64,000 nucleotides of DNA from Clostridia bacterium (GCA_017394805.1 JAFPXC010000001.1:2322-66321); one strand, 5' to 3'; counted from the first letter of the stretch, positions 291 through 19,674 are shown. The notes: generated by a model from the letters alone, not told the origin. Translations and numbers: made by a program.

Positions 291-1171
291 TTAGTTGCAC
301 TTCGGCAACTTCGCTATGGTTTCTTTGCTGACTTGCCCGATGATCTCGCCCTCGGTGATACAGGTAAAATCGTCGAACAATAACGCCTTTCTGTCGTCCA
401 CTCCGTAAGGACAGGCAATATCCGTTTCGAGAACGTCGGAAAGAAAGTAAGTTGGTAGTTTACCACCGTAAACAAGCCTTTCGCCCGTCTTTTCCAAATA
501 CTTGGTGATATACTTCGCCGCTTGAGATATATCGTCCTGCTCGTTTATCTCTCGGAAGTCGTTTCTCCCGAAGTGTTTGAGAAAATGACTGTTTGGATAG
601 GTCGTTTGTCTGCGGCGATTCGTCGTGCTGTAATCTTCGATTGTTTCTATCGTTCCTATCATTTGCGGTATGTAGAATATTCCGTGGAAGTGTAAGCGTT
701 GTTTGTCGGGTGAACGCTCCCATACGCCGATATACTTCCAACCGTTGCGATTGACAAGGTGTTTCAACGTGTTGGACAGTTTCTTTCTGAACGTTTCTTC
801 GGTGTGCAATTTGTCGTCGTAGGTGAACGTGCAAAAATAGTTCCAGTCCTGCAATCGCAGTTTTCGCATAAGTCTGACCTTGCGTTTTATGGCGTTTGTC
901 TTTACCTGCTCCATATTCGCATTGACGAAAGTGGTCAAATCTTCGCTATCTTCGAACTCGTCTTGCAAGGCTTCTTTGATTGCCTTTTTGCGTTCTTTTT
1001 TCGGTTTGGATAAACTATCCTTGTATGCCGTTTCAAAGTGTGTTGTTCTTTGGGTGTTTGTTTTCGCTTTGCCGTTGCCTTTTTACTGACTTTACCGCTC
1101 GAGAACGCGCCTTGCGGTATCGCTATGTAATGACTGCCGTCAAAGTAGATTTTTGCGTTTCGATAATTCAT
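291..1171 (-). pseudogene. Rolling-circle replication initiator (HUH endonuclease Rep) split by a -1 frame change in an A5 tract
   Basis: ORF 291-968 carries Rep motifs FCTFTYD (motif 1), HFHGIFY (HUH) and KYITKYLEK (YxxxY tyrosines). Its frame stays open upstream to 1082. A second ORF with AAGGAG RBS and ATG at 1171-1169 (MNYRNAKIYFDGSHYIAIPQGAFSSGKVSKK...) runs into it. The two frames join in a -1 relationship at AGT AAA AAG (T5 run 1080-1084 on the + strand). The joined product would be about 293 aa. Confidence 0.7.
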
Positions 1172-1216
1172 TTTCGTTTTGCTCCTTATTGAGATTTTCG
1201 TTTTGTCGGCAAGCGG

Positions 1217-1268
1217 AAAATAAAAAGAGCAGGACACAAAAAACTAACGTGTTTCTTGTATCCTGCTC
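1217..1268 (-). terminator. Rho-independent terminator (minus strand)
   Basis: 13-bp stem gagcaggacacaa (1227-1239) / ttgtatcctgctc (1256-1268) with one G-U pair on the minus-strand RNA. It is followed on the minus strand by TTTTTATTTT (1217-1226). Confidence 0.7.
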
Positions 1269-1376
1269 CATAAACCCGACCACTGTTCCTATGCGGAAAT
1301 CTCGGCTCGCGGTTGCGGTACTATCTCTCTATCTTAGACTTACCGTTCAAATATTCAGTTGTTTTGCAACGTGTTT

Positions 1377-1520
1377 TCAGCTTTGTTGCTTTTGACTTTC
1401 TTTGTACGTTTCGACTATGCTCTCATACAGCGAATCGAGAAAAGACGTTTGCTCGCTTTCCGTCATCGCCGTTATATCCGGCTTGCCGACCGTTTCAATC
1501 GTGAGTTCCGTTTTCAGCAT
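1377..1520 (-). CDS. Small hypothetical protein (47 aa)
   Basis: Own translation, below the ORF-track cutoff. GGAGG lies 9 nt upstream of ATG 1520-1518. Product is MLKTELTIETVGKPDITAMTESEQTSFLDSLYESIVETYKESQKQQS, with stop at 1379-1377. The terminator at 1217-1268 follows. Confidence 0.4.
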   Translation of the reverse strand: MLKTELTIETVGKPDITAMTESEQTSFLDSLYESIVETYKESQKQQS

Positions 1521-1727
1521 TTCTTTCTACCTCCTTTTTTCGCTATGGTAACTTCCTAACTCGCAAGTTCTTTGCGACTTTGAAAAAAAGGAATAGAAAA
1601 CGGACGAAAATTCTTTCGTATTCCGCCCGTTAAATGCAATCTCCGTCCCACAATACAAAAGATACCAAACGGAAAACAAATAAAAGACCACGGCGTAAAA
1701 TGATGTAAAACTCAAAAACAGCCGACG

Positions 1728-1877
1728 GCGGATCATCGGGGCGATTCGCAAGCGGTTTAGCGAGAACGCCCCGATCCGCTCGGCTTTGAGTGTTTCATTT
1801 TACCGTGTCGATTTGGTTTTCGGCGGGTGCTTGACCGCGCCGAGCATCGGCGCGCTTGTATATGTCAAGCACCCGCC
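1728..1877. other. Cluster of GC-rich nested inverted repeats in an AT-rich intergenic region; candidate replication origin or recombination site
   Basis: Hairpin 1: gcggatcatcggggcg (1728-1743) versus cgccccgatccgc (1767-1779), 13 bp with a 3-nt bulge. Hairpin 2: a perfect 14-bp pair ggcgggtgcttgac (1822-1835) / gtcaagcacccgcc (1864-1877) encloses a second perfect 7-bp pair cgcgccg (1836-1842) / cggcgcg (1848-1854). Confidence 0.35.
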
Positions 1878-1887
1878 ACAGTGCCAT

Positions 1888-1916
1888 TTGTTTGTTTTAT
1901 ACATTTATGATATACT
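1888..1916 (+). promoter_or_regulatory. Sigma-70-type promoter upstream of the R-M gene cluster
   Basis: TTGTTT (1888-1893), a 17-nt spacer that includes the TG of an extended -10, then TGATATACT (1908-1916). AGGAGG RBS and ATG at 1941 follow. Confidence 0.55.
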
Positions 1917-1940
1917 TTTATTTAAAAAGGAGGGTTATTT

Positions 1941-2510
1941 ATGAAACCTATCGAAAAAGACTTTATATTGCAAACAACCACGCGCAAACAAATGAGAGAC
2001 GATTTAATCAAAGAATTTCTCAAAGAAGAACCTGGCACTGGCAATGGAGATAATGCCTCCAAGTATTCATTTAGAGTGGAGACATTTGGAGTTTATCAAA
2101 TCGTATTAGAAAGACCTGCACATAATAACAAAGGGATAGATTTTATTGTTAGAGTTAATGACATAACGTTTGAACATAAAGTAAATGGCAAAAAACTCAA
2201 GTATTCAAAATTCAACAATGCACCAAGCCATGATAATATACTTGATGCACTTGAATATTGCAAAAATAACTATACAAAACTATATAATTCATTTGTTATA
2301 AACGAGCTTTCAAAGATATATAACTGTAAAATAGTTGGGTATTCGAAGCCTTCTGGAGCATCATTTGTAGATTGTAAAGGAAACCAACATCCTATTGAAA
2401 TGCTATTGTTGTCAATCAAGTGGCTTTTTATCGAGCAAGACTGTACATATTGGAACTACTCTGGTAGAAATATGTTATATACTGGTTTAAAAAATAAAAA
2501 TCTTATTTAA
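1941..2510 (+). CDS. Hypothetical protein (189 aa), first gene of the AT-rich R-M cluster
   Basis: ORF track; strong AGGAGG RBS 7 nt upstream; codon composition matches neighbouring island genes. I recognise no motif. Confidence 0.6.
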   Translation: MKPIEKDFILQTTTRKQMRDDLIKEFLKEEPGTGNGDNASKYSFRVETFGVYQIVLERPAHNNKGIDFIVRVNDITFEHKVNGKKLKYSKFNNAPSHDNILDALEYCKNNYTKLYNSFVINELSKIYNCKIVGYSKPSGASFVDCKGNQHPIEMLLLSIKWLFIEQDCTYWNYSGRNMLYTGLKNKNLI

Positions 2511-2583
2511 AACGATAAAGATTTTCTTGCTATTATTCGCTATTTTGGAATATAATATTCTTATTAAAATTCGAGGTGATATT

Positions 2584-3651
2584 ATGTTGAGTTTTATGTC
2601 CGCGAAAGAAGCCGCTGAAAAATGGGATATCTCTCAAAGGAGAGTTGCTATACTATGTTCCGAAAAACGTATCGACGGAGCAATGATGGTCGGCAATATG
2701 TGGATTATTCCGTCCACCGCTGAAAAACCTATTGATAAAAGAACCGTTCGTTATGAAAAAACAAAAACTGTCACACTTAAACCATTTGTAAAATGGGTCG
2801 GCGGTAAAAGTCAACTTGTCGATGAAATAGAAAAAATGTTACCGTCTGACGGTGAAAAAGTTTTGACGAAATACGCTGAACCTATGGTCGGCGGCGGCGC
2901 ATTATTTTTCAATATCCTTTCAAAGTATGATTTTGAAGAACTTTATATAAGCGATATAAACGCTGAACTTATAAATGCATACAAGGCGGTAAAAACCGAT
3001 ATCGACAACTTGATCTCAAAACTCAATGAAATGCAAATGTCGTTCTTGCCTATGGATGAAAACGGCAGAAAGTATTTTTATTATAATATTCGCGAAAAAT
3101 TTAATTCGACCATCTTATCTGCAGAAACTTCAACTGAAAAAGCCGCACAGTTTATTTTCTTGAATAAAACTTGTTTCAATGGCTTATATCGCGTAAATAG
3201 AAAAGGTCAATTTAACGTTCCTATGGGAGCATATAAAAATCCGACTATTTGTGATGATGAAAACTTGCGAAACATTCACGAAGCGTTGCAAAACGTAACG
3301 ATTGTTTGCGGAGATTATTCGCTTTCAAAATCATTCATAGATAAAGATACTTTCGTATATCTTGATCCCCCTTATCGTCCTATTTCCGAAACATCTGCAT
3401 TTACTTCATATAATTCTGAATCTTTTGATGATAATGAGCAGATACGACTTGCACAGTTTATTGATGAAATCAACAAGTTGGGAGCAAAGATTGTTTTAAG
3501 CAATTCGGATCCGAAAAACGTAAACGAAGATGACAATTTCTTTGATGATTTGTATAGAAATTATAAAATCAACCGTGTCGAAGCAAGCCGTGCAATCAAT
3601 AGCAAAGGTGATAAGCGCGGTAAAATAAACGAATTGCTCATTTGCAACTGA
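2584..3651 (+). CDS. Dam-family N6-adenine DNA methyltransferase (GATC type, DpnM / M.MboIA-like) with an N-terminal helix-turn-helix extension
   Basis: FVKWVGGKSQL, EPMVGGGALFF (AdoMet motif), NGLYRVNRKGQFNVP and YLDPPYRP (motif IV) match the Dam/DpnM family from memory. The extra N-terminus MLSFMSAKEAAEKWDISQRRVAILCSEKRIDGA looks like an excisionase/MerR-type HTH. Start chosen at ATG 2584 after GAGGTGA; the ORF-track TTG at 2527 is less likely. Confidence 0.9.
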   Translation: MLSFMSAKEAAEKWDISQRRVAILCSEKRIDGAMMVGNMWIIPSTAEKPIDKRTVRYEKTKTVTLKPFVKWVGGKSQLVDEIEKMLPSDGEKVLTKYAEPMVGGGALFFNILSKYDFEELYISDINAELINAYKAVKTDIDNLISKLNEMQMSFLPMDENGRKYFYYNIREKFNSTILSAETSTEKAAQFIFLNKTCFNGLYRVNRKGQFNVPMGAYKNPTICDDENLRNIHEALQNVTIVCGDYSLSKSFIDKDTFVYLDPPYRPISETSAFTSYNSESFDDNEQIRLAQFIDEINKLGAKIVLSNSDPKNVNEDDNFFDDLYRNYKINRVEASRAINSKGDKRGKINELLICN

Positions 3652-3661
3652 GGTGAGTCAA

Positions 3662-3904
3662 ATGACAAATGATAATTTCAGTATTTTGTTAGATTGTTTG
3701 CGGATAGTTGAAAATCCAAATATTGAACAGCAAGCAAAAGATAAGGCAATCAAAAATCTTATATGTAAAATGATAGATATGAATATGGCTTACGGCAATA
3801 TTACTAAACAAGACTTGAAGCATTTAGTTGATATTTCTAATACTGCAAAAGAATTATACGAAGTGGCTTCAGTATATTTCGCGAGTCATGACATTAGACT
3901 CTAA
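3662..3904 (+). CDS. Small hypothetical protein (80 aa) between the methylase and the endonuclease
   Basis: ORF track frame (GTG 3653). ATG 3662 is preferred because GAGGTGAG lies just upstream. No recognisable HTH, so it is not an obvious C-protein. Confidence 0.5.
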   Translation: MTNDNFSILLDCLRIVENPNIEQQAKDKAIKNLICKMIDMNMAYGNITKQDLKHLVDISNTAKELYEVASVYFASHDIRL

Positions 3905-3915
3905 GGAGAAAACAT

Positions 3916-4779
3916 ATGAAAAGAGATTTTAATGAGTGGCTTAAAACATTCAAGTCGAGCATTTGCAATTATGGCTATTATGTTGATTTCGAGAAAGTTT
4001 ACGGCAATATCGAGAATATAAAAGTTGAGTTGAATATTCTCAATTCTCTTATCGGCTCTAAAAATATAGAACATGATTTTGAAAAGCTTGTTGCAGAATA
4101 TCCGCAAGTGTTGAAATGTATTCCGATTTTGCTTGCGGTGCGTGGGCGTGAAATATATGCTATTGACGGCGATGGCGAATATCTTTTTAATTTCCATACG
4201 CTCAATTACACGACAAAAGAGTATATAATGTTTATGCAAAAGACGGGTTTGTTTGATTTAATCGCAAATCACGTTATCAATAACCTTGTCGATTATGTTA
4301 CGGGCGTAGAAGTAGGACTTGACAGTAACGGTCGCAAAAATCGCGGCGGACATTTAATGGAAAATCTTGTTGAAGATTATCTTGTAAAAGCGGGACTTAT
4401 AAAAGGTGAAACATACTTTAAGGAGATGAAACTATCCGCTATTGAAAAGAAATGGGATATTGATTTATCGGGTATATCAAATCAAGGAAAAGCCGAAAAG
4501 CGGTTTGATTTTGTTGTTAAAAAAGGTAAAACAATTTATGGCATAGAAACGAATTTTTATACCGGTGGCGGCTCAAAATTAAACGAAACTGCACGCAGTT
4601 ATAAAACAATCGCATTAGAGGCAAAACAAATCGACGATTTTTCCTTCGTGTGGCTTACCGACGGTTACGACGGTTGGAAATCTGCACGGCATAATTTGGA
4701 AGAAACTTTTGACGTGTTAGACAATATGTATTGTATAGCCGACTTGGAAAATGGCGTTATTGCTAAACTGTTCGATTGA
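3916..4779 (+). CDS. Type II restriction endonuclease, DpnII/MboI family (expected GATC specificity)
   Basis: 287 aa, the same size as R.DpnII. Long colinear similarity from memory: FNEWL...YYVDFEKVY..NI..IKVELNILNSLIGSKNIE, LVDYVTGVEVGLDSNGRKNRGG, KRFDFVVK, NFYTGGGSKLNETARSYK. AAGGAGA RBS. Confidence 0.9.
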   Translation: MKRDFNEWLKTFKSSICNYGYYVDFEKVYGNIENIKVELNILNSLIGSKNIEHDFEKLVAEYPQVLKCIPILLAVRGREIYAIDGDGEYLFNFHTLNYTTKEYIMFMQKTGLFDLIANHVINNLVDYVTGVEVGLDSNGRKNRGGHLMENLVEDYLVKAGLIKGETYFKEMKLSAIEKKWDIDLSGISNQGKAEKRFDFVVKKGKTIYGIETNFYTGGGSKLNETARSYKTIALEAKQIDDFSFVWLTDGYDGWKSARHNLEETFDVLDNMYCIADLENGVIAKLFD

Positions 4780-4780
4780 T

Positions 4781-5524
4781 ATGGCAAAAAAGATTCCTTT
4801 ACAACCCGAAGATTTCGAACTCGAAACAAATACCGTTTGGGCTTTTCCCGATCGCGGTAAATGGGCAACGCACGACGCTAAATATCGTGGAAATTGGTCA
4901 CCGTATATTCCGAGAAACGTAATTCTGCGTTATTCGAAAGAGAACGACATTGTTTTGGATCAGTTTGTCGGTGGCGGCACTACTGCCGTTGAAGCCAAAC
5001 TGACAGGCAGAAATTTTATCGGTGTTGATATTAACCCAAACGCACTTGAAATTACAAAAAGCAAATTGAATTTCGAGTGTGAATTTAATCCGACGATAAA
5101 TATTATGCAAGGCGATGCGCGCAATCTTTCGTCTATTGCCGACGATTCGATAGACCTTATTTGCACACACCCGCCTTATGCCGATATTATTCATTACAGC
5201 GAAGATATCGACGGCGATATGTCGCTTATGCCGATGAAAGATTTTTTGTTTGAAATCGGCAAAGTCGCAGAAGAATGCTATCGGGTATTGAAAAAGGATA
5301 AGTTTTGCGTTATACTTATGGGAGATATGCGCAAAAAAGGTATGGTCCAACCACTTGCTTTTGAAACGATGCGTATTTTTGAAATGGCAGGGTTCAAAAC
5401 GAAAGAAATTATAATCAAAGAACAACACAACTGCAAAGCCACGGGCTATTGGAAAACAAACAGTATAAAGTTTAATTTTCTTTTACTCGCCCACGAGTAT
5501 ATGTTTGTTTTAAAAAAGCGGTAA
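4781..5524 (+). CDS. Second DNA amino-methyltransferase of the R-M cluster (motif I before motif IV)
   Basis: LDQFVGGGTTAVEAKLTGRNFIGVDINPNA (AdoMet motif I) is followed by CTHPPYADI (catalytic xPPY). ATG 4781 lies 1 nt after the endonuclease stop (TGAtATG). The M-R-M order mirrors the MboI arrangement. Confidence 0.8.
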   Translation: MAKKIPLQPEDFELETNTVWAFPDRGKWATHDAKYRGNWSPYIPRNVILRYSKENDIVLDQFVGGGTTAVEAKLTGRNFIGVDINPNALEITKSKLNFECEFNPTINIMQGDARNLSSIADDSIDLICTHPPYADIIHYSEDIDGDMSLMPMKDFLFEIGKVAEECYRVLKKDKFCVILMGDMRKKGMVQPLAFETMRIFEMAGFKTKEIIIKEQHNCKATGYWKTNSIKFNFLLLAHEYMFVLKKR

Positions 5525-5613
5525 GTTTTGTAAAATGCAAGGTTTATTATAACCATCCACTACGCTTGATAGTAGTCGATAGTAGATAAGAAAAGTTATT
5601 AGGAGTGAAAAAA

Positions 5614-6885
5614 ATGACAACTATTGTACGCTCAATCGAAGATGCATTGCATTACGAAATATCTCAAGTACAAGTTGAAGAATATTGGAATTTGGGTGAT
5701 ACTCCAGAATTAAAAATACATAGTATTCATGCATACCCAGCAAAATTTCCGGCATTTATCGCAAGCAAAGCCATTCAGTTGGCATATAAAAGTGGAATTG
5801 AAGTGAATACGGTTTCGGATATTTTTTGCGGTTGTGGGACAGTTGCAATTGAAGCTAAACTTAATGGTGTAAATTTCTGGGGATGTGATATCAATCCCAT
5901 CGCAACCTTAATTACTAAGGCAAAAATAGGAAATTATAGTATAAGCAAATTAGAGGAACTGTATAATTTTATTCAAGATTCATATTCCAATAACAGAACC
6001 GTATATAATTACGAAGAGTCAAATGAACGTATAAGATACTGGTTCAAACAAGAGCAATTCTATGACTTAAGCAAGCTTAAAGAAGCAATTATGTCTATTC
6101 CCAAAGGAAAATATCGCACTTGTTTTGAGTGTCTGTTTTCATCCATATTAAAACCTACATCAAAATGGCTAACAAAATCTATAAAGCCACAAATTGATCC
6201 CAATAAGAATATTGCTGATGTTTGGAAAACTTTTGAACGTCAATTTAGAAAGTTTACTAAATGTGTGAGCGATATGCCTCAAACTCAATCTAATATTGAA
6301 ATTGTGACATGTAGTATTTTAACAAAAAAAAGTTTGCCAAAAGTAGATTTAATTATTACTAGTCCGCCTTATGTAACCTCATATGAGTATGCGGATTTGC
6401 ATCAACTTTCTTCCCTGTGGCTTGACTTTACGGATGATTACACTTTGCTACGGAAGGGAACGATGGGAAGCGCATATAATAGTGAAACATTTAACTATGA
6501 TATTCTAGAATTAAATGAAACGGCACGTGAAATTATATTAGAATTAAAGTCAAATAAAAAAATTTCAAAGGCAAAAATTAAGTCTATTGCGAGATACTAT
6601 ATTGATATGCAAAAGGCTACAGAGCAGTGCTATAAAATGTTGAATCCGCACGGTATGGCGTTATTTGTAATTGGAGATACGGAATACAAAGGAACGCAAA
6701 TACATAACTCTAGGCAACTTGTTGAATCTTTAATAAAAAGCGGGTTTCGGGAAGTTACTGTTTCTAAACGAAAGATTAGGAATAAAATATTAACTCCTTA
6801 TAGAGATGAAAATGGCAAGTTTACTAGCAACAAAGATGATCGGGAAATCTATCACGAGGAATTTGTAATTACTGGGAGAAAATAA
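5614..6885 (+). CDS. DNA amino-methyltransferase with SPPY catalytic motif (N4-cytosine or N6-adenine), first gene of a three-gene operon
   Basis: DIFCGCGTVAIEAKLNGVNFWGCDINPIA (motif I) and LIITSPPYVTSYEY (motif IV, nt 6361-6372). AGGAG lies 8 nt before ATG 5614. About 150 aa separate the two motifs, which may be a target-recognition region. Confidence 0.8.
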   Translation: MTTIVRSIEDALHYEISQVQVEEYWNLGDTPELKIHSIHAYPAKFPAFIASKAIQLAYKSGIEVNTVSDIFCGCGTVAIEAKLNGVNFWGCDINPIATLITKAKIGNYSISKLEELYNFIQDSYSNNRTVYNYEESNERIRYWFKQEQFYDLSKLKEAIMSIPKGKYRTCFECLFSSILKPTSKWLTKSIKPQIDPNKNIADVWKTFERQFRKFTKCVSDMPQTQSNIEIVTCSILTKKSLPKVDLIITSPPYVTSYEYADLHQLSSLWLDFTDDYTLLRKGTMGSAYNSETFNYDILELNETAREIILELKSNKKISKAKIKSIARYYIDMQKATEQCYKMLNPHGMALFVIGDTEYKGTQIHNSRQLVESLIKSGFREVTVSKRKIRNKILTPYRDENGKFTSNKDDREIYHEEFVITGRK

Positions 6886-6887
6886 CT

Positions 6888-9122
6888 ATGGCTAAAAGAG
6901 AACTTATAAAAATTGAACCGTATGCAAGATTATTAACTATGCTTAGTGAACAACTTATCAAAAATGAAGTAGTTGCTTTAACCGAGATTGTTAAAAATGC
7001 ATATGATGCAGATTCTAATTGGGTAAGAATAAGTTTTGAAAATTTTACAAGGAATTATAAGGCTCAAAAGGATTCAAGAATCATTATCGAAGATTGTGGA
7101 TGTGGTATGACTGAAGAAGTTTTGAGACATGACTTTATTAATCCCGCTTCTGCAAATAAAAAAATTAAAAAGGAACGCGGAGAAACATCTCCTAACGGAA
7201 GAATACTTCAAGGAGAAAAAGGGATTGGCCGCTTTTCGTTATTCAAATTAGGCAAAACCGTTACGGTTTATACAAAAACAAAAGATGATACTAGTCCTAG
7301 AAAATTAATTGCAGATTTCTCAAAATATGGAGATGAGTTTTTAAATGATGATGAAAGTCAAATTATGCTTTCAGAATTAGATGTGGAATTCATTTCAGAA
7401 GCCACTGAATTCAGTTTTGAGCCGCAAGTTATGCTCGCGGATGGGTATGCCAAACGGCCCAATCAAGGGACAACTATTATAGTCGAAAATTTAAATGATA
7501 GCTGGGGAAAGGCAAAAATAGAAAAACTACAAGATGAATTAATGAGTCTTATCGGGAACGATGAAGATGATTTTTCTATATATATTTTTAAAGATAATTC
7601 TTTCCTTCCTTCTGTCGTGATAACTGAGGATGACAGATTGCAGAAAATCATTGATCAGAAAGCGGTATATAAAATTGAGGGTCACTATATAGAAAAAGAG
7701 TCTGCATTTGAATTTACAATTAATGGGAAAGCATATAAAAAAGATATTTACGATAAACAAATTAACAAGTTAAGTACATACAAAAAATATAAAGTTGATA
7801 AAGGCTTCAAGGAAAATGACAGCTTGGAAAATAATAGTGCATTAACAAATACAGAATGTGGCGATTTTTCTTTTAGATTTTATGTGTTTGATTTGGAAAA
7901 GCAATATGTGCGAGAAAAATTTAGACTCCCTGTTGATGATTTGAAAATTGTAAAGAAGAATCGCGTTTATTTATATCGAGACGGTATAAGGGTATTTCCA
8001 TATGGAAGTATTAAGGATGATTGGTTGCAGGTTGATACTATTAGAGGAACGCAAAAGGCCAGTGCTATGTTTAGCAATGACCAATTAATTGGTTATGTAA
8101 ATATAACCTATAAGGATAATCCCAACTTGAAAGATAAAACTAATCGTGAAGGATTAATGGAGGTAGGCAATGCCTATCTAGATTTTGTTGCCATGATCCA
8201 GTGCTTTTTGCAATACATCAAAGTATATCATTATGATTTGGATTATGCAAACAAAAAAAATGCAATAAAGAAATTTGATAAGAATGAGCAAATAAATCTG
8301 TCTAATAGTTTTTCTAAAGTAATAAAAGAAGTAAATGATGATTCAATCAAAAAGCAACTAATTAAAATACAACAAGATGTTGAAAAACAAAGCGAGTATC
8401 AGTTAGGCCGTATTCGTGTCGTAGAGGATTTAGCAGGGATCGGTCTATCAATTCAAGCAACGCACCATGACCTAAATAATTTTATCAAGAGAAGTTATAA
8501 TGTTATTGATGACTACAGCAGAAATCTTTTGATAGACGACAATTCTTTTACAGATAAAAGCATTGTTTTAGAGAAATTAGAACGTCTGCGTGGTCTATTG
8601 TCTGCTATGGACGATCTTTTGGTAGACATGAAGAGTTTGTTTGCATCTACGCAAAGGAAATCCAAACAGATTCGCGTTGCGGAAGTATTAAATAAAGTAA
8701 TCGGGTATTATAAAAATTTATTTGTAACTAAAAACATAAATTTCGATGTTAAATCAATTGGAAACAATCCTTTAGTTATTACTATGCCCGAAGCATTATT
8801 AATGACTATCTTTATTAACATATTTGACAATGCTATTTATTGGCTTGAAGATGAAGATAAACAGGCAAAACAAATACGGATAACCATAAATTGCGATGAA
8901 CAATGTATCATTTTTTCAGATAATGGTCCGGGTATCTATCCCGAAGAGGAAGAAAAAATATTTGAAGCATTCTTTACAGGCAAAGGATTGGAAGGGCGCG
9001 GCCTTGGTTTATATATATGCAGGCAATTTATGGAACGATATGATTATCATATCCAAGTGATTAAAAACACCATTGATTGTTTGAACGGCGCTAATTTTTT
9101 GCTTGATTTTAACAAGGAGTGA
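6888..9122 (+). CDS. Dual GHKL protein: N-terminal MORC/MutL/Hsp90-like ATPase plus C-terminal histidine-kinase-like H-box + HATPase_c module
   Basis: N-terminal Bergerat motifs: EIVKNAYDAD, IIEDCGCGM, GEKGIGRFS. The middle contains VYLYRDGIRVFPYG..DDWL, which looks like a transducer. C-terminal motifs: IQATHHDLNNF (H-box-like, HH at nt 8463-8468), IFDNAIYW (N), FSDNGPGI (G1), FEAFFTGK (F) and GRGLGLYICRQ (G2). No TM segment. Starts 2 nt after the MTase stop. Confidence 0.8.
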   Translation: MAKRELIKIEPYARLLTMLSEQLIKNEVVALTEIVKNAYDADSNWVRISFENFTRNYKAQKDSRIIIEDCGCGMTEEVLRHDFINPASANKKIKKERGETSPNGRILQGEKGIGRFSLFKLGKTVTVYTKTKDDTSPRKLIADFSKYGDEFLNDDESQIMLSELDVEFISEATEFSFEPQVMLADGYAKRPNQGTTIIVENLNDSWGKAKIEKLQDELMSLIGNDEDDFSIYIFKDNSFLPSVVITEDDRLQKIIDQKAVYKIEGHYIEKESAFEFTINGKAYKKDIYDKQINKLSTYKKYKVDKGFKENDSLENNSALTNTECGDFSFRFYVFDLEKQYVREKFRLPVDDLKIVKKNRVYLYRDGIRVFPYGSIKDDWLQVDTIRGTQKASAMFSNDQLIGYVNITYKDNPNLKDKTNREGLMEVGNAYLDFVAMIQCFLQYIKVYHYDLDYANKKNAIKKFDKNEQINLSNSFSKVIKEVNDDSIKKQLIKIQQDVEKQSEYQLGRIRVVEDLAGIGLSIQATHHDLNNFIKRSYNVIDDYSRNLLIDDNSFTDKSIVLEKLERLRGLLSAMDDLLVDMKSLFASTQRKSKQIRVAEVLNKVIGYYKNLFVTKNINFDVKSIGNNPLVITMPEALLMTIFINIFDNAIYWLEDEDKQAKQIRITINCDEQCIIFSDNGPGIYPEEEEKIFEAFFTGKGLEGRGLGLYICRQFMERYDYHIQVIKNTIDCLNGANFLLDFNKE

Positions 9123-9127
9123 TACAT

Positions 9128-10405
9128 ATGGAAAACGTAAGACAAATGTTTTCAGGTGATATACTGATAATAGACGATGAAGTTAATGAAAAAGATACAG
9201 AAATTAATAGAATTAAAGAATTTTTGGAAACGAAGCGTTTTCATGTTATTGCATCTGAGTCTATTCCTACCCCAAATGAGTTAACAGACAAGAAAATTGC
9301 ATTTGTTGTATGCGACTGGAAATTTAATAATATAGATGAGAATTTGAATGCACAGAATGTTATTAGTTTTCTAAACAATATTAACACAAATCGCTTAATT
9401 CCTATTTTTATATGTACGACTGTAGAAAAAGATGAAATTGAAGAATATCTGCTTGATGAAAATGGATGTAAAAAGTATAAGAAAAATGAAGCATCTTGTG
9501 TTTTTATAGTTAAAAAGTCCGAGATTGTAGGAGATAATATTTTTAAAGTTATCAATAACTGGATTGAGAAAAATCCTTCAATTCAATATATGAAAGCTTG
9601 GGAAAAAACTATCGAAATTGCAAAAGAAAAGATGTTCAGTGATTTATATAATGAATCTGAATTCTGGCCGCTTGTACTACATCAATGTTTTAAAAATGAT
9701 GGCGATGATCCGACAGAAGAAATGGGACAATTTTTATCTCGGAATCTATTTTCTAGGGTTAGTGGCACGTATAAGTTTAAAGAATTAGAGCCAAGATCAA
9801 TGGATGATATTCAATTAAAAAACATATTAGATGGAGAAAGGACATTTTATTATCAGGAAGAAAACATATCCGATGAAACGCTTTTACATACAGGCGATAT
9901 ATTTGAATTGGCAGGAAACTTATACATTAACATTAAAAGGCAGTGTGATTTATTGCGGAATAACAGAGATGTTTATTTGCTTAAGCTTGACTCTGCTGGT
10001 AAAATTAGTGATTCTCCAATTAAATTGTCTGATAACAAAGAGAATCTGCAGATTTTAGGGAAAAACTATAATATTGCTGATAAGCCTATAGAAAAAATCA
10101 ACGACGCACTGGATAAAGCTTTTGCAAAAACTAATTCTTTTTATAACGGAAAATTTTTAGAAAAAATCAACGAAGTAATTATTCCATGTGTGTGTCATCT
10201 TGATGTCTGTAAAATTGATCTTCGTTCTTTAAGAGTTATATCAGTTGATAATTTAAAGACTGATTACAAACGCAAGGCGCGACTTTTAGAACCATATATC
10301 AGCATTGTCACGGAAAAATTTGCATCATATATTTCATCGAAAGGAACCATGCGTACACCTGAATCTTTGTTGACTCATAAGTTTATTTGTCAAGATATAG
10401 AATAA
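9128..10405 (+). CDS. Receiver (REC) domain protein with an uncharacterised ~280-aa C-terminal domain
   Basis: All five REC landmarks are present: ILIIDDE (acidic pair), AFVVCDWKF (phospho-acceptor Asp, nt 9314-9316), PIFICTT (Thr) and VFIVKKS (Lys). I cannot assign the remainder to any family. AAGGAG lies 8 nt before ATG 9128, which is 5 nt after the upstream stop. Confidence 0.75.
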   Translation: MENVRQMFSGDILIIDDEVNEKDTEINRIKEFLETKRFHVIASESIPTPNELTDKKIAFVVCDWKFNNIDENLNAQNVISFLNNINTNRLIPIFICTTVEKDEIEEYLLDENGCKKYKKNEASCVFIVKKSEIVGDNIFKVINNWIEKNPSIQYMKAWEKTIEIAKEKMFSDLYNESEFWPLVLHQCFKNDGDDPTEEMGQFLSRNLFSRVSGTYKFKELEPRSMDDIQLKNILDGERTFYYQEENISDETLLHTGDIFELAGNLYINIKRQCDLLRNNRDVYLLKLDSAGKISDSPIKLSDNKENLQILGKNYNIADKPIEKINDALDKAFAKTNSFYNGKFLEKINEVIIPCVCHLDVCKIDLRSLRVISVDNLKTDYKRKARLLEPYISIVTEKFASYISSKGTMRTPESLLTHKFICQDIE

Positions 10406-10436
10406 AACTCGATTTACGTTACTAACGCTCCGCCAT

Positions 10437-10480
10437 AAAGAAACGGTTATTTTGATAGAATGACCGTTTCTTTTATTTTA
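10437..10480 (+). terminator. Rho-independent terminator ending the three-gene operon
   Basis: aaagaaacggt (10437-10447) pairs with accgtttcttt (10463-10473), followed by a T-rich tail to 10480. Confidence 0.75.
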
Positions 10481-10659
10481 TCTCAAAACGGCTTGAAATA
10501 AGGGCATTTCGCCTTTTTCTTTATTGCCGTTCTTCCCCAAATACAAATCGTAGGATTATGGGGGGGTAATCGTTGGATTATGGTTTTAGTTGATACCTAC
10601 ACGCACTTTTTCGACTTTTTCTAACTTTTTTGAATTCGATCTCAATCTGACGGTTTTCG

Positions 10660-11460
10660 TCAAACGTCATCGATCGGAGCGCCGAGGAGCGCTTCGCTGA
10701 GTTTTTTTGCCTCTTCTTTTTCGCTTCGCATGTGAAACACCTTCCCCCGCAGGGAATCCATACGTTCGTCCAGTTCGGCACTGAGGTCCGCACACTTTTT
10801 GAGTTCATCCGACATTTCGCCGTCAAAGAGTGAACCCTTTTTATATCTCAGCTGATGCTCCAGACTCGCCCATGCGTCCATCGCAATGGTGCGAAGTTGT
10901 ATTTCCGCTTTCATCACGCGCTTTTCCTGCTGCAGAAAAATAGGGACGGCTACGATCATATGGAGGCTGCGGTATCCGTTCTCTTTGGGAGAAGAGATAT
11001 AATCCTTTTCCTGAATGATTTGTATATCGTCCTGCTTTTTCAACGCGTCCGCCAGCATAGAAACGTCGTCTGTAAAAGAGCAGATCACCCGTATCCCGGC
11101 AATATCGTTCAGGTTTTCCTCTATGCTGTTGATCGTGAGCGGATACCCGCGTGAGATCAGTTTATTCCTGATCGAAAGCGGATTTTTAAGTCTTGTTTTG
11201 ATCGAGCTGATCGGCTGGCGATCAAAACGGAGCGAGAATTCCTCGTTCAGCACCTTGAACTTTGTCTCGATCTCCATCATGGCGCAGTTGTAATAGGACA
11301 TGAGTTTCGCAAAGGAATAGGTTTTTTGTATCGCCGCTTCAAACATCTCCTTGCTGATCGGCATCTCGGAAAAGTCCGACCTGTCTTCCGACAAAGGCAT
11401 CAATTCATTGTTTTTCATAAACATCGTCCCCTTTACTTTTTTCGCATTAAGATTGGTCAT
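10660..11460 (-). CDS. Small alarmone synthetase (RelA/SpoT-domain (p)ppGpp synthetase, RelQ/RelP-like)
   Basis: SIKTRLK...S...K, DIAGIRVIC, GYRSLHMIV, EIQLRTIAMDAWASLEHQLRYK are the classic synthetase-domain motifs. The exact start is uncertain (11460, or ATGs near 11424/11418). Confidence 0.85.
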   Translation of the reverse strand: MTNLNAKKVKGTMFMKNNELMPLSEDRSDFSEMPISKEMFEAAIQKTYSFAKLMSYYNCAMMEIETKFKVLNEEFSLRFDRQPISSIKTRLKNPLSIRNKLISRGYPLTINSIEENLNDIAGIRVICSFTDDVSMLADALKKQDDIQIIQEKDYISSPKENGYRSLHMIVAVPIFLQQEKRVMKAEIQLRTIAMDAWASLEHQLRYKKGSLFDGEMSDELKKCADLSAELDERMDSLRGKVFHMRSEKEEAKKLSEALLGAPIDDV

Positions 11461-14721: not shown

Positions 14722-15798
14722 ATGAAATTCGTCAAAAAAGCAATCGTGGTATTATTAATCGTCGCCGTCGTCGCCGGCGTTACGGCGTGCGCCAACGGCA
14801 AAGACGCCGTCAAGTTCGATACCTGGAACGAATGTACGGCCTTGACGTCGCTCAAAGAGTACGTCAAAGCGGTGACGGACAAAAACAGCAAAGAGTATAT
14901 CCCCGTGGAAGATCGCATCGCGGTGTTCGACATGGACGGCACCTTGTGCGGCGAATTGTTCCCCGAGTATCTCGAGTATCTTCTCTTGGCCTACCGCTGC
15001 TTGGACGATCCTACCTACCAAGCGAGCGAAGACCTCGTCGAAGTCGCCACCGAGATACGCGAAGCTGGCAAGAACTACAAGACGCCCGCTATCCCCGAGT
15101 ACGACGTGCGCCACGGCAAGGCGCAAGCCAAAGCCTTCGCGGGGATGACGCCCAACGAGTTTATACAATACGTCAAGACCTTCCTGCAACAGGACGCGCA
15201 AGGATTCACGGGGTTGAAATACGCCGACTCCATCTACAAACCCATGATAGAGGTGGTGACCTACCTGCAACAAAACGACTTTACCTGCTACGTGGTCAGC
15301 GGCTCCGACCGCATGATCTGCCGCGCGGTGGCGTGCGAAGCGCTCAACCTGCCCGAAAACCAAATCATCGGCATGGACGTCACCTTGGTGGCCACCAACG
15401 AGCCGACCTATGAGAACAACGAGGGCTATCACTACAACAATCTGCACTATCAATTCAACGACGGCGGCAAGGACACCTTGGTAAGAGGCGACAGTCTGTG
15501 GATAAAGAACCTCAAGATGAACAAGGTCTTCCAAATCGCGCAGGAGATCGGCAAGCAACCCGTGCTTTCCTTCGGCAACAGCAGCGGCGACGTGAGTATG
15601 CACGAGTACACCGTCACCGACAATAAATACCGCTCGATGGCCTTTATGCTCATCGCGGACGACGCCGAAAGAGACCACGCCGACCTCACGGAGACCGCCA
15701 AACGCAAAGCGCAATGGGAAACGCGCGGCTACACCATCATCTCGATGAAAAACGACTTCAAGACCATCTACGGCGAAGGCGTTACGATGACGAAATAA
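14722..15798 (+). CDS. HAD-superfamily hydrolase, predicted lipoprotein
   Basis: Signal peptide with lipobox VTAC. HAD motifs FDMDGTL, VVSGSD and GNSSGD. GAGGAGAG RBS. Confidence 0.8.
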   Translation: MKFVKKAIVVLLIVAVVAGVTACANGKDAVKFDTWNECTALTSLKEYVKAVTDKNSKEYIPVEDRIAVFDMDGTLCGELFPEYLEYLLLAYRCLDDPTYQASEDLVEVATEIREAGKNYKTPAIPEYDVRHGKAQAKAFAGMTPNEFIQYVKTFLQQDAQGFTGLKYADSIYKPMIEVVTYLQQNDFTCYVVSGSDRMICRAVACEALNLPENQIIGMDVTLVATNEPTYENNEGYHYNNLHYQFNDGGKDTLVRGDSLWIKNLKMNKVFQIAQEIGKQPVLSFGNSSGDVSMHEYTVTDNKYRSMAFMLIADDAERDHADLTETAKRKAQWETRGYTIISMKNDFKTIYGEGVTMTK

Positions 15799-15818
15799 TC
15801 GAAAAAGAGGAAACCGAT

Positions 15819-16523
15819 ATGGAACAAAAATTGCTGATAGAAGCGAAAAACCTCGTAAAAACCTACGGCGAGGGCGAAGGCTTGACCTTTGCGTTGAACA
15901 AGGTGTCCATCAACGTGTACGAACACGACTTTTTGGTGATCTTGGGCGGCTCGGGCTCGGGCAAGTCCACCTTCCTTAATATGCTGGGCGGCATAGACAA
16001 GGTGGAATCGGGCGAAATATTGGTCAACGGACAAGACATCGTCAAATTCAACGACAAGCAGTTGACCTTGTACCGCCGCAATACGATAGGATTCGTCTAT
16101 CAGTTCTTCAACCTCATCAACGATATCACCGTCTATCAAAACGTCGTGTTGGCCCCCGGCTCGCGCAACAAAGAACGCGCCATGGCGCTCTTGGAACGCG
16201 TGGAATTGGCCGACAAAAAGGATAAATTCCCCCGTCAACTGTCGGGCGGACAGCAACAGCGCGTGGCCATCGCCCGCGCCCTCAACAAGCCCAGCGACAT
16301 ACTCCTCTGCGACGAACCCACGGGCGCATTGGACGACGTGTCGGGCAAAGCCGTCCTCAAACTGCTCGAGGACATACACAACGAAGGCAAAACCATCGTG
16401 TTGGTGACGCACACCCGCGAGATAGCTGGTATGGCCAACCGTATCATCACGATGAAAAACGGGCAAGTGGTCAAAGAGGAATACAACGACCACGTCGTCA
16501 AAGCGGAAGAGGTGATTTGGTAA
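15819..16523 (+). CDS. ABC transporter ATP-binding protein (MacB/LolD type)
   Basis: GGSGSGKST (Walker A), LSGGQQQRVAIARAL (signature), LLCDEPTGALD (Walker B). Start moved to ATG 15819 after AAGAGG. Confidence 0.9.
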   Translation: MEQKLLIEAKNLVKTYGEGEGLTFALNKVSINVYEHDFLVILGGSGSGKSTFLNMLGGIDKVESGEILVNGQDIVKFNDKQLTLYRRNTIGFVYQFFNLINDITVYQNVVLAPGSRNKERAMALLERVELADKKDKFPRQLSGGQQQRVAIARALNKPSDILLCDEPTGALDDVSGKAVLKLLEDIHNEGKTIVLVTHTREIAGMANRIITMKNGQVVKEEYNDHVVKAEEVIW

Positions 16524-16524
16524 T

Positions 16525-19002: not shown

Positions 19003-19083
19003 TCGAGGATACGCGCGGCGCGGTTTTGCGGCAAAGTCGCCCGTAGGCGCGCCGCTCGACCGACAGATAAGGAGCGAACGGAT

Positions 19084-19674
19084 ATGGTAAAGGTGGTATT
19101 GGCAAAGACTCGTGGTCTGACGTGGGCAAAAGCCCGCGCCTTGCCCTTCGTCCTCGCAGAGGACGTAGCCGAGGCCGACCGCTACCGAAGCCCCGACGAC
19201 AAGGTGCTGCACCTCGTATCGGCCTTTCTCAAACGGAAATACGTGGGGACGTGGACGGTTTCGCCCGAGGGCAAGCCCCTTTCCCTCGCCGTTTGCTTCA
19301 ACGTGTCGCACACCGAATGGCTGGTGGCTTTGGCGCTCGCCCCCTTTGACGTGGGCGTAGACGTGGAGCGCGTCCGCACGGCCGACGCGGATTTGCGCAA
19401 CTATATCGCCGCCTCCGACGAGCGGGCGCACGTCCACTCGGACGAGGACTTTTTCCGTCTGTGGACGGCCAAAGAGAGCCTGGTCAAAGCCGAAGGCACG
19501 GGCTTTGACGTCAAACCCGACGAAGTGCCCGCCTTGCCCCTCGAAGGGTGCAAGACCTACAAAAATCATCGCTATTATTCCCGCCAAACCGAGGTGGGCG
19601 ACTGCGTGCTATCCGTCACGTGCCGCACCGACCGACCGTTTGAGTGGGCCATTGAAAAGGAGAATATACTATGA
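19084..19674 (+). CDS. 4'-phosphopantetheinyl transferase (Sfp type)
   Basis: FNVSHT, VGVDVERV and FRLWTAKESLVKAEGTG motifs. The stop overlaps the NRPS start (ATGA at 19671-19674). Confidence 0.85.
   Translation: MVKVVLAKTRGLTWAKARALPFVLAEDVAEADRYRSPDDKVLHLVSAFLKRKYVGTWTVSPEGKPLSLAVCFNVSHTEWLVALALAPFDVGVDVERVRTADADLRNYIAASDERAHVHSDEDFFRLWTAKESLVKAEGTGFDVKPDEVPALPLEGCKTYKNHRYYSRQTEVGDCVLSVTCRTDRPFEWAIEKENIL

Follow-up and report, generated by a model that had tools for sequence, protein, structure and literature searches.

A methylase, dual-GHKL kinase and receiver-protein cassette from a Clostridia bacterium: a candidate His-Asp defence or addiction module

The locus

A 64,000-nucleotide stretch of DNA from a Clostridia bacterium (GCA_017394805.1 JAFPXC010000001.1:2322-66321), referred to below as the window, was analysed around an open reading frame (ORF) that an earlier note, made from the sequence alone, had described as one polypeptide carrying two different GHKL ATPase modules. 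The ORF occupies exactly 6888-9122 on the + strand, with an ATG start, 744 amino acids (aa) and a TGA stop at 9120-9122. It is the middle gene of a cassette at 5605-10405, which we describe as a self-contained, co-transcribed and translationally coupled three-gene module resembling a restriction-modification system. The upstream methylase and the downstream receiver partner, both unmentioned in the earlier note, define the unit. Its features are as follows.

5605-6885, + strand: cassette gene 1, a 426-aa amino-methyltransferase (Pfam, PADLOC, synteny, alignment).
6888-7532, + strand: N-terminal GHKL (Bergerat) ATPase module of the kinase, MORC/MutL/Hsp90 (HATPase_c_3) type, residues 1-215 (Pfam, NCBIfam, profile, motifs).
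7533-8171, + strand: alpha/beta middle (transducer-like) domain, residues 216-428, with the motifs RVYLYRDGIRVFPYG, DDW, SNDQ and DKTNREG (Foldseek, invariant motifs).
8172-8648, + strand: signalling helix and DHp hairpin, residues 429-587 (helix 429-481; hairpin 485-549 and 557-587; AlphaFold2, H527-D528).
8649-9122, + strand: CA (catalytic ATP-binding) domain with N, G1, F and G2 boxes, residues 588-744 plus the stop codon (PF02518, phmmer, Foldseek).
9128-10405, + strand: cassette gene 3, a 425-aa partner with a divergent receiver (REC) domain, a helical linker and a C-terminal beta-barrel domain (~9824-10354).
10437-10473, + strand: intrinsic terminator-like hairpin closing the operon, a 17-bp stem followed by a T-run.

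The methylase stop codon and the kinase ATG are separated by 2 nucleotides. The true start of the partner is the ATG at 9128, 9 nucleotides past the ribosome-binding site AAGGAG, which sits inside the end of the kinase gene; homologues of the partner open at the same Met (MENVR).

Sequence and structure analysis of the kinase

Motif conservation was read from an alignment of 40 homologues with 38-77% identity to the window protein, and kinase positions called invariant below are invariant in this alignment. The same alignment was used for an AlphaFold2 model (mean predicted local distance difference test, pLDDT, of 76.5) and for a profile that was searched against the sequences of the PDB.

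In the N-terminal half, HATPase_c_3 (PF13589) was matched by Pfam at residues 29-146 (E = 5.8e-19), and residues 23-218 matched the N-terminus of the BbrUII/HgiDII restriction-enzyme family in NCBIfam (NF050001, E = 6.5e-19). A phmmer search of PDB sequences with the N-terminus retrieved the N-domains of GRP94, HtpG and Hsp90, and the 40-homologue profile retrieved the same targets more strongly (GRP94, HtpG and Hsp90 N-domains among its matches). Bergerat-fold motifs I-IV are present as in MORC/paraMORC/MutL-type GHKL ATPases: E33, N37, D40-A-D42, D69xGxGM74 and G109xxG112xG114 are invariant, and T195, the Thr of motif IV, is nearly so. No CW zinc finger or other accessory domain, and neither a membrane span nor a ligand-binding domain, was detected in the kinase protein by Pfam at E<=10. 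This half is best termed paraMORC-like.

In the AlphaFold2 model, residues 1-~220 form a GHKL alpha/beta sandwich and ~225-428 a further alpha/beta domain; three long helices span 429-481, 485-549 (which bears H527) and 557-587, and residues 594-744 make up a CA domain. No sequence model was matched to residues 216-428 (Pfam, E<=10). When the model was compared with the PDB using Foldseek, 460-540 columns counted from the N-terminus were aligned to MutL LN40 (target-normalized TM-score, TMt, of 0.62-0.64), the SMCHD1 ATPase module, MORC2 and Hsp90/TRAP1. The top matches include full-length Hsp90/TRAP1 N+M domains; once normalized to target length, those to MutL, MORC and SMCHD1 equal or beat Hsp90. 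These matches support, at the level of the predicted fold, the middle region as a structural equivalent of the transducer/middle domain of MutL, MORC2, SMCHD1 and Hsp90. Invariant positions in the region comprise R359..R364-D365..R368-V369..P371-Y372-G373, D377-D378-W379, S396-N397..Q399 and D416-K417-T418..R420-E421-G422. K417, which lies within the DKTNREG motif, is a candidate for the GHKL transducer lysine that contacts the ATP gamma-phosphate.

The C-terminal half was matched by HATPase_c (PF02518) at residues 636-724 (E = 1.5e-21) and, over residues 465-725, by the NCBIfam model of AtoS-type kinases, which covers the DHp as well as the CA domain (E = 6.3e-19). SrrB, HK853 and QseC were retrieved from PDB sequences by phmmer with the C-terminus; the 40-homologue profile matched many solved kinases (LvrB, HK853, ZraS), with start positions between 471 and 530 and a reach to 723. 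With Foldseek, ~250 columns were aligned to the DHp+CA region of HK853 (TMt ~0.58). The predicted phospho-acceptor, His527 (codon 8466-8468), is followed by Asp528, and 8451-8489 is translated as IQATHHDLNNFIK. The H box (H527-D528) is invariant, as are the CA boxes: N644, D647 and N648 (N), D678xGxG682 (G1), F692 (F) and G703-R-G-L-G-L708 (G2). Sequence and fold matches together identify this half as a genuine DHp+CA kinase core that bears a predicted phosphorylatable His.

Each half is a genuine GHKL module, the two belonging to different classes, and the very small profile E-values together with the family-wide invariance exclude chance as the source of the dual-GHKL observation. The earlier note had assigned MutL/MORC/Hsp90-style Bergerat motifs to the N-terminal ~215 aa and the box order of histidine kinases, after a His-containing helix, to the C-terminal ~230 aa; both assignments are borne out, and its boundaries (~215, ~280 and ~230 aa) agree with the AlphaFold2 model. 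Its likening of the ~280-aa middle to the transducer/S5-like region of MORC-type proteins gains fold-level support from the Foldseek alignments, MutL LN40 included, and the Pfam result agrees with its statement that a membrane or known ligand-binding sensor domain is lacking. The profile searches that it had proposed as a check on the kinase core found that core, His helix included.

Receiver partner and its C-terminal domain

Numbered from the GTG at 9119, the acceptor of the partner REC domain is Asp66 (codon 9314-9316). The receiver quintet was traced through partner homologues down to 25% identity: D19, D66 and K133 are invariant, and D20 and T100 (T/S) nearly so. With Foldseek, the N-terminal ~150 residues were matched to receiver folds, CheY and CpxR among them. 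No Pfam family was found for the partner, even at a lenient E<=10.

The partner model has a pLDDT of 73 overall and of 78-95 in the core strands of the C-terminal domain (C-domain). Foldseek against the PDB matched this domain to MazF (4me7_A, TMt 0.75, root-mean-square deviation 3.0; 5cqy_B, TMt 0.63), and five 'PemK-like' proteins were matched in BFVD, a library of viral structures. The predicted order of secondary structure, beta1-beta2-alpha-beta3..beta7 followed by a C-terminal helix, agrees with that of MazF; the GD(I/V) motif in beta1 and the ending (R/K)xG(R)x(L/V)xP..helix likewise resemble MazF. The model thus shares with MazF/PemK/CcdB an SH3-like barrel with a C-terminal helix. Those toxins are paired with an antitoxin, whereas the partner C-domain is fused behind a REC domain and has invariant residues of its own (C276-D277, E348 and R385), in addition to G259-D260; G259-D260 forms a GD and C276-D277 a CD motif. 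We regard the C-domain as a putative MazF/PemK-fold domain, the similarity being one of predicted fold, and its simplest reading is that of a toxin-like effector, which the receiver would gate. A PD-(D/E)xK reading of the 'GD...NIK' motif was considered and rejected, since the position of the Lys varies (K/R/T) across the superfamily.

No helix-turn-helix (HTH), winged-helix or other DNA-binding domain was detected in the partner family by Pfam and NCBIfam at lenient thresholds or by Foldseek against the PDB and BFVD. The Foldseek matches of the partner contain no full-length regulator of the OmpR/PhoB type, and those outside the REC domain are MazF/PemK-like. A profile search with the C-domain for other architectures gave only 37 short proteins, two of which were inspected and are frameshift fragments of partner genes adjoining dual-GHKL kinases; this search gave no evidence of the C-domain outside the partner architecture.

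In several assemblies the partner gene is split by a frameshift (locus L011, 11228-12414, versus locus L012, 11228-12553; also loci L013 and L014), and in L013 so is the kinase gene. These frameshifts may be sequencing errors, or could reflect inactivation of a toxic effector, the latter fitting the toxin reading.

The methylase

The methylase has motif I (FCGCGT), then an insert of ~175 aa and then motif IV (TSPPY). It was matched by Pfam (N6_N4_Mtase, 2e-13; MethyltransfD12, 2.4e-05) and by PADLOC (MTase_II PDLC03322, 3e-40), and the S253-P-P-Y256 and G76/G78 columns of its alignment are invariant. Its divergence tracks that of the kinase: methylase and kinase are 77% and 73% identical to the window proteins at L009, versus ~50% and ~40% at L002-L004.

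Another SPPY methylase of ~396 aa, which is more divergent and shares only 24% identity with that of the cassette, was observed upstream of the cassette in divergent orientation, for example at L001 (6571-7764, - strand), where it is the only methylase.

Linkage of the three genes

One genome per GTDB species was scanned with two peptide patterns, giving 467 loci with a relative, which is a lower bound. Linkage was counted at the best 80 of these at least 467 loci, in which ORFs were called and searched with hidden Markov models built from our own alignments. The methylase lies directly upstream of the kinase, on the same strand, at all 80 loci, and the partner directly downstream at 78; the remaining two stop at a contig edge. 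All of the individual metagenomic and plasmid records inspected have the order methylase-kinase-partner. From this near-absolute linkage, the trio is taken as the functional unit.

The ORFs within 4 kb on either side were clustered, and no recurrent fourth gene, HNH or other nuclease, was found among them at the 80 loci. Small HTH proteins flank the cassette at only five, and the sole repeated extra neighbour is the second, divergently oriented methylase (11/80). Since neither a nuclease nor a further gene of any other kind recurs, the effector must be one of the trio's own products or a part of one.

Distribution and contexts of relatives

The full-length kinase profile was searched against 1.84 billion cluster representatives (50% identity) and gave 2,424 matches at E<=1e-30. 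The best 150 all have E<=1e-85, and most of these are 680-800 aa long and matched end to end. A k-mer-indexed search with the kinase gave more than 3,500 matches at E<=1e-5 among 8,000 candidates scored; one database protein, P0001, labelled 'Clostridia bacterium', is 100% identical to it. Relatives occur in at least 467 species-representative genomes, ~0.25% of species representatives, with a patchy distribution over many phyla. The best 80 loci belong to Clostridia, Negativicutes, Alpha-, Beta-, Gamma- and Deltaproteobacteria, Bacteroidota, Verrucomicrobia, Acidobacteria, Nitrospirota, Planctomycetota, Fibrobacteres, Cloacimonadota, Gemmatimonadota, Synergistota and others. In a phage collection, only two unannotated faecal contigs were matched.

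With such numbers of matches, the coupling of the two GHKL modules is not unusual, contrary to what the earlier note had supposed; it had moreover been described in print in 2021. The census of the architecture that the note had called for returned what is largely a common and characterized family, through that publication and through the anti-phage system Ambrosia, both discussed below.

Some relatives are carried on conjugative plasmids (Allorhizobium and Campylobacter among others) and one on an integrative mobilisable element. Their neighbours include toxin-antitoxin, integrase and retron-type reverse-transcriptase genes, as well as restriction-modification genes of types I and II. The DpnII system that adjoins the cassette in the window is replaced at other loci by C5 methylases with a BpuJI-like enzyme and Vsr, by a single C5 methylase on an element with integrase and Mob genes or by a type I HsdR. 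The context of the cassette is the pattern of mobile defence cargo. At present the cassette genes are labelled 'sensor histidine kinase', 'ATP-binding protein' or 'hypothetical protein'.

Three relatives (P0191, P0204 and P0201) keep the N-terminal GHKL module and the middle domain (profile positions 4 to ~455-508), and have, in place of the kinase, a coiled coil rich in charged residues followed by a C-terminal helical domain without annotation. Such relatives fit a modular logic of a sensor plus an exchangeable output. A motif that recurs in the three, 'N..(A/T/L)H(N/M)(P/E)', may be HEPN-like.

At L004 (Caulobacterales), a 601-aa HATPase_c_3/HSP90-type protein and a 773-aa unannotated protein are encoded a few kb upstream of the cassette (432-4570, - strand), and a retron-type reverse transcriptase lies downstream of it. 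The locus resembles a defence island in which another GHKL system is present.

Comparison with published systems

The architecture was described in a computational study (Bellieny-Rabelo et al., 2021; PMC8011034) as a kinase-like protein with HATPase_c_3, a new DHp model termed HEF_HK (PF19191) and HATPase_c, linked in 91.6% of regions to a receiver-like Response_reg_2 (PF19192) protein. Methylases were found upstream and restriction-modification genes were enriched nearby. The authors proposed descent from paraMORC proteins and a role of HATPase_c_3 as sensor, perhaps by DNA clamping; they also suggested nucleoside triphosphate (NTP) sensing and speculated that the pair controls restriction-modification systems (PMC8011034). 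The window kinase has the same soluble order of HATPase_c_3, DHp with His-Asp/Glu and HATPase_c, and the window cassette has in common with the published regions a downstream receiver-like protein without a known output domain, an upstream methylase and surroundings rich in restriction-modification genes. The published work emphasizes a C5 methylase, whereas the dedicated methylase in the window is an N6_N4/SPPY amino-methyltransferase; it is also purely computational and gives no fold for the partner's C-terminal domain.

PF19191 did not match the window proteins (E<=10) or the orthologues from L001 and L004 (E<=1), and gave weak matches only in two more distant relatives, one from A. baumannii and P0270. 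PF19192 did not match a window protein (E<=10), nor any protein scanned, so that its coverage in the library is uncertain. Full-length relatives of the kinase, with 24-30% identity, are present on Acinetobacter, Bacteroides and Campylobacter replicons. By hhalign, the partner C-domain was matched to the C-terminus of a Campylobacter plasmid response regulator (97% probability, E = 5e-11) and to the A. baumannii partner (86%). On the strength of the full-length kinase homology and these C-domain matches, the window cassette is placed as a sister subfamily of the published HEF_HK kind.

Ambrosia of Pseudomonas aeruginosa protects experimentally against phages (bioRxiv 10.1101/2025.09.30.679545). 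Its genes encode a regulator of the XRE type (AbrR), an N6 methylase (AbrA), a histidine kinase/Hsp90-like ATPase (AbrB), a REC protein (AbrC) and a type IV HNH nuclease (AbrD). Defence requires every one of the five and is abolished by the D60A substitution in the REC protein. The window cassette matches the AbrA/B/C-like core in domain composition, a comparison made by description and not by sequence. The AbrD HNH nuclease and the AbrR XRE regulator of Ambrosia are absent from the window island, and neither recurs at the 80 loci; AbrC is reported with a winged HTH, whereas none was found in the window partner (Pfam, NCBIfam, Foldseek). Ambrosia occurs mostly in Pseudomonadales.

In the BbrUII/HgiDII enzymes and in VcSduA (paraMORC3 or Shedu type I-D, a GHKL-nuclease), as in the window kinase, an N-terminal GHKL module and a clamp-like middle are joined; in those enzymes they form the regulatory ATPase of a system that targets foreign DNA, and the ATPase glutamate of VcSduA is needed for defence (PMC12137116). 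They carry the nuclease output in the same polypeptide, whereas the window kinase has a transmitter from which the signal would go on to another protein. Relatives of MutL and MORC function in repair and in compacting chromatin, and the kinase fusion is not described in Iyer et al. (2008; PMC2292703). In DefensePredictor (PMC13092281), one figure legend gives HATPase and REC as domain labels of predicted, unvalidated systems, and the paper holds no usable detail.

The kind of cassette is therefore already described computationally and has one experimentally validated relative system, and the window subfamily is missed by current Pfam and PADLOC models. New here are the strict three-gene synteny without a nuclease and the assignment of a putative MazF/PemK-fold effector.

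Proposed mechanism and alternatives

The trio is probably a mobile, restriction-modification-associated defence or addiction module that uses His-Asp signalling. The suggestion of the earlier note that the MORC-like half may act as sensor, for example by clamping DNA, is plausible by analogy with related ATPases.

In the scheme that we propose, the SPPY methyltransferase would mark the host or resident DNA. The 744-aa protein would be a soluble homodimeric kinase with the paraMORC-type GHKL and transducer ATPase as its sensor. By analogy with the BbrUII/HgiDII-type enzymes, GHKL-Shedu and the MORC/MutL clamps, the trigger would be an ATP-driven dimerization or clamping of this sensor on its cue, most likely invading or unmodified DNA. 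From the anatomy of the protein, the signal would travel through a coiled coil of ~120 residues and the DHp helices. The CA domain, which has the motifs of a competent kinase, would then phosphorylate His527, and the phosphoryl group would pass to Asp66 of the adjacent REC protein, in which the receiver quintet is conserved. Once phosphorylated, the partner would release its C-terminal MazF/PemK-fold domain as a putative toxin-like effector, leading to growth arrest or to action on nucleic acid. The net outcome would be restriction of phages or plasmids, or abortive infection together with addiction of a mobile island. A His-Asp phosphorelay would thus stand in place of a fused nuclease, in a module that was probably acquired horizontally. 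The chain as a whole, from marking by the methylase through sensing by the kinase and the phosphorelay to the partner effector, is given slightly less than an even prospect of being right.

An anti-phage His-Asp phosphorelay to a REC-fused effector, as proposed here for the window cassette, is used by Detocs, a defensive two-component system reported by Rousset et al. (2023). Detocs differs in its sensor, in an additional buffer protein, in an effector that is a PNP ATP-nucleosidase and in lacking a methylase.

The most far-reaching form of the proposal is an autonomous immune or addiction system, in which an ATP-driven DNA clamp of MORC type would read methylation and, instead of cutting, would signal by His-Asp phosphotransfer to a MazF-fold toxin domain gated by REC; it is put forward tentatively and is on the unlikely side. 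Several points weigh against the scheme proposed above. For this subfamily, the sensing of DNA, the sensitivity to methylation, the phosphotransfer and the action of the effector are all inferred. Comparison of the partner C-domain with a small hand-made MazF/PemK alignment gave a probability of 0.3% in hhalign, Pfam found nothing in 11 members of the C-domain, and the C-domain profile retrieved from PDB sequences only a chance match to PTS IIA (E = 0.4). With these sequence-profile tests negative, the MazF-like assignment is one of fold; in addition, the hairpin that bears the catalytic Arg of MazF appears shortened. The second methylase at some loci exceeds what a simple self-marking model needs. 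In Ambrosia, methylation by AbrA gave phage no protection, and its authors favour transcriptional control by the response regulator over a direct effector (10.1101/2025.09.30.679545). Lastly, no model of any system in PADLOC-DB v2 (2023) matches the kinase or the partner (E<=0.01), so the cassette cannot be filed under any system catalogued in 2023.

The main alternative, though an unlikely one, is that the pair forms a regulatory two-component system, with a kinase that senses infection or stress and a phosphorylated partner that serves as transcription factor for its own methylase or for a neighbour such as DpnII. Ambrosia offers a precedent, as infection induces its in-cluster reporters and the annotation of AbrC includes a winged helix-turn-helix (10.1101/2025.09.30.679545); the 2021 speculation on control of restriction-modification systems (PMC8011034) and the restriction-modification genes that often adjoin the cassette point the same way. 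The partner family does not fit such a role, having no HTH or winged-helix match (Pfam, NCBIfam, lenient thresholds) and no OmpR/PhoB-type full-length regulator among its Foldseek matches. Moreover, the neighbouring restriction-modification system varies by locus and no nuclease recurs at the 80 loci, so that no conserved regulated target is left besides the cassette itself, which weakens this explanation further. A reading that we consider quite unlikely takes the N-terminal GHKL module as an Hsp90-type clamp that responds not to DNA but to a protein, such as one from a phage, or to nucleotides, such as ATP/NTP levels, and the methylase as part of the output, for example marking DNA for attack. 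The full-length Hsp90/TRAP1 N+M domains among the top Foldseek matches are client-protein clamps, NTP sensing was suggested in 2021 (PMC8011034), and the Ambrosia methylation without phage protection goes together with a methyl-dependent type IV nuclease (10.1101/2025.09.30.679545). The closest curated family of the module, however, consists of DNA-cleaving restriction enzymes, the flanks of the 80 loci hold no methyl-dependent nuclease partner in this subfamily, and the target-length-normalized matches to MutL, MORC and SMCHD1 are equal to or better than those to Hsp90.

A housekeeping system for epigenetic or DNA maintenance, in which a MORC-like compaction or repair ATPase reads methylation and signals to a cellular regulator, would accord with the functions of MutL and MORC relatives in repair and chromatin compaction (PMC2292703). 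Against it stand the patchy distribution (~0.25% of species representatives over many phyla), the low-GC island in the window and, elsewhere, the conjugative plasmids, mobilisable elements and toxin-antitoxin, integrase and restriction-modification neighbours. This distribution and these settings argue for mobile defence cargo and not a core function, and the housekeeping explanation is highly improbable.

Discussion of two-component signalling almost always concerns the sensing of the environment, with transcription as the result. In the present cassette, the transmitter of a complete kinase is tied to an ATPase of MORC/MutL type, to a DNA methylase of its own and to a receiver without a detected DNA-binding domain. 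If the proposed autonomous system is correct, it would amount to 'restriction by phosphorelay', mechanistically distinct from Ambrosia, for which transcriptional induction of the HNH nuclease was proposed, and a compact three-gene defence or addiction module would join the known repertoire. How MORC-family ATPases couple sensing to output is poorly understood (PMC8011034); if the relay is true, it would show a GHKL clamp turning a DNA-state cue into a chemical signal and would provide a bacterial model for this coupling. For annotation, recognition of this cassette, which PADLOC misses, would point to a candidate defence system in no fewer than 467 species-representative genomes.

Genomic setting in the window

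The region ~1900-10500 of the window has ~32% GC, versus 55-60% for the genome and 52-61% across most of the remaining window. GC skew is strongly positive over this low-GC island, consistent with recent horizontal acquisition. Upstream of the cassette the island holds the following genes.

2527-3651, + strand: HTH-fused DpnM-like Dam methylase (Pfam MethyltransfD12, 1.3e-66; PADLOC MTase_II).
3653-3904, + strand: unannotated 83-aa ORF between the methylase and the endonuclease.
3916-4779, + strand: DpnII endonuclease (Pfam DpnII, 5.8e-107; PADLOC REase_II).
4751-5524, + strand: DpnA-like N6_N4 methylase (Pfam N6_N4_Mtase, 1.9e-27; PADLOC MTase_II).

Together they make up a complete DpnII-type (GATC) restriction-modification system (2527-5524, + strand), in which the gene of the DpnA-like methylase overlaps that of the endonuclease by 29 nucleotides. 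The DpnM-like methylase has an extra N-terminal HTH-like segment, with weak HTH_17/HTH_59 matches at residues 23-63. The DpnII system was considered as part of the unit and rejected, since the neighbours differ at every other locus; we regard it as a separate tenant of the same low-GC island.

The first gene of the island (1941-2510, + strand) encodes 189 aa behind a strong ribosome-binding site and has no match in Pfam, NCBIfam or PADLOC. A gene for a rolling-circle replication protein (291-968, - strand; REP_ORF2-G2P, 6.7e-12) lies just upstream of the island, and at L002 the cassette is directly downstream of an inovirus-like block (1-818; REP_ORF2-G2P, Zot, secretin). These two cases hint at carriage of the cassette by small rolling-circle elements or filamentous prophages, or at integration of such elements next to it.

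Right past the cassette terminator, a small alarmone synthetase is encoded convergently (10660-11460, - strand; RelA_SpoT, 2.1e-32). Further along, 15714-26861 (+ strand) encodes an ABC transporter ATPase and an FtsX-type permease, followed by a two-module nonribosomal peptide synthetase of 2,396 aa with Condensation, AMP-binding, PP-binding and NAD_binding_4 domains and a thioester reductase domain at its end; this is a natural-product locus, unrelated to the cassette.

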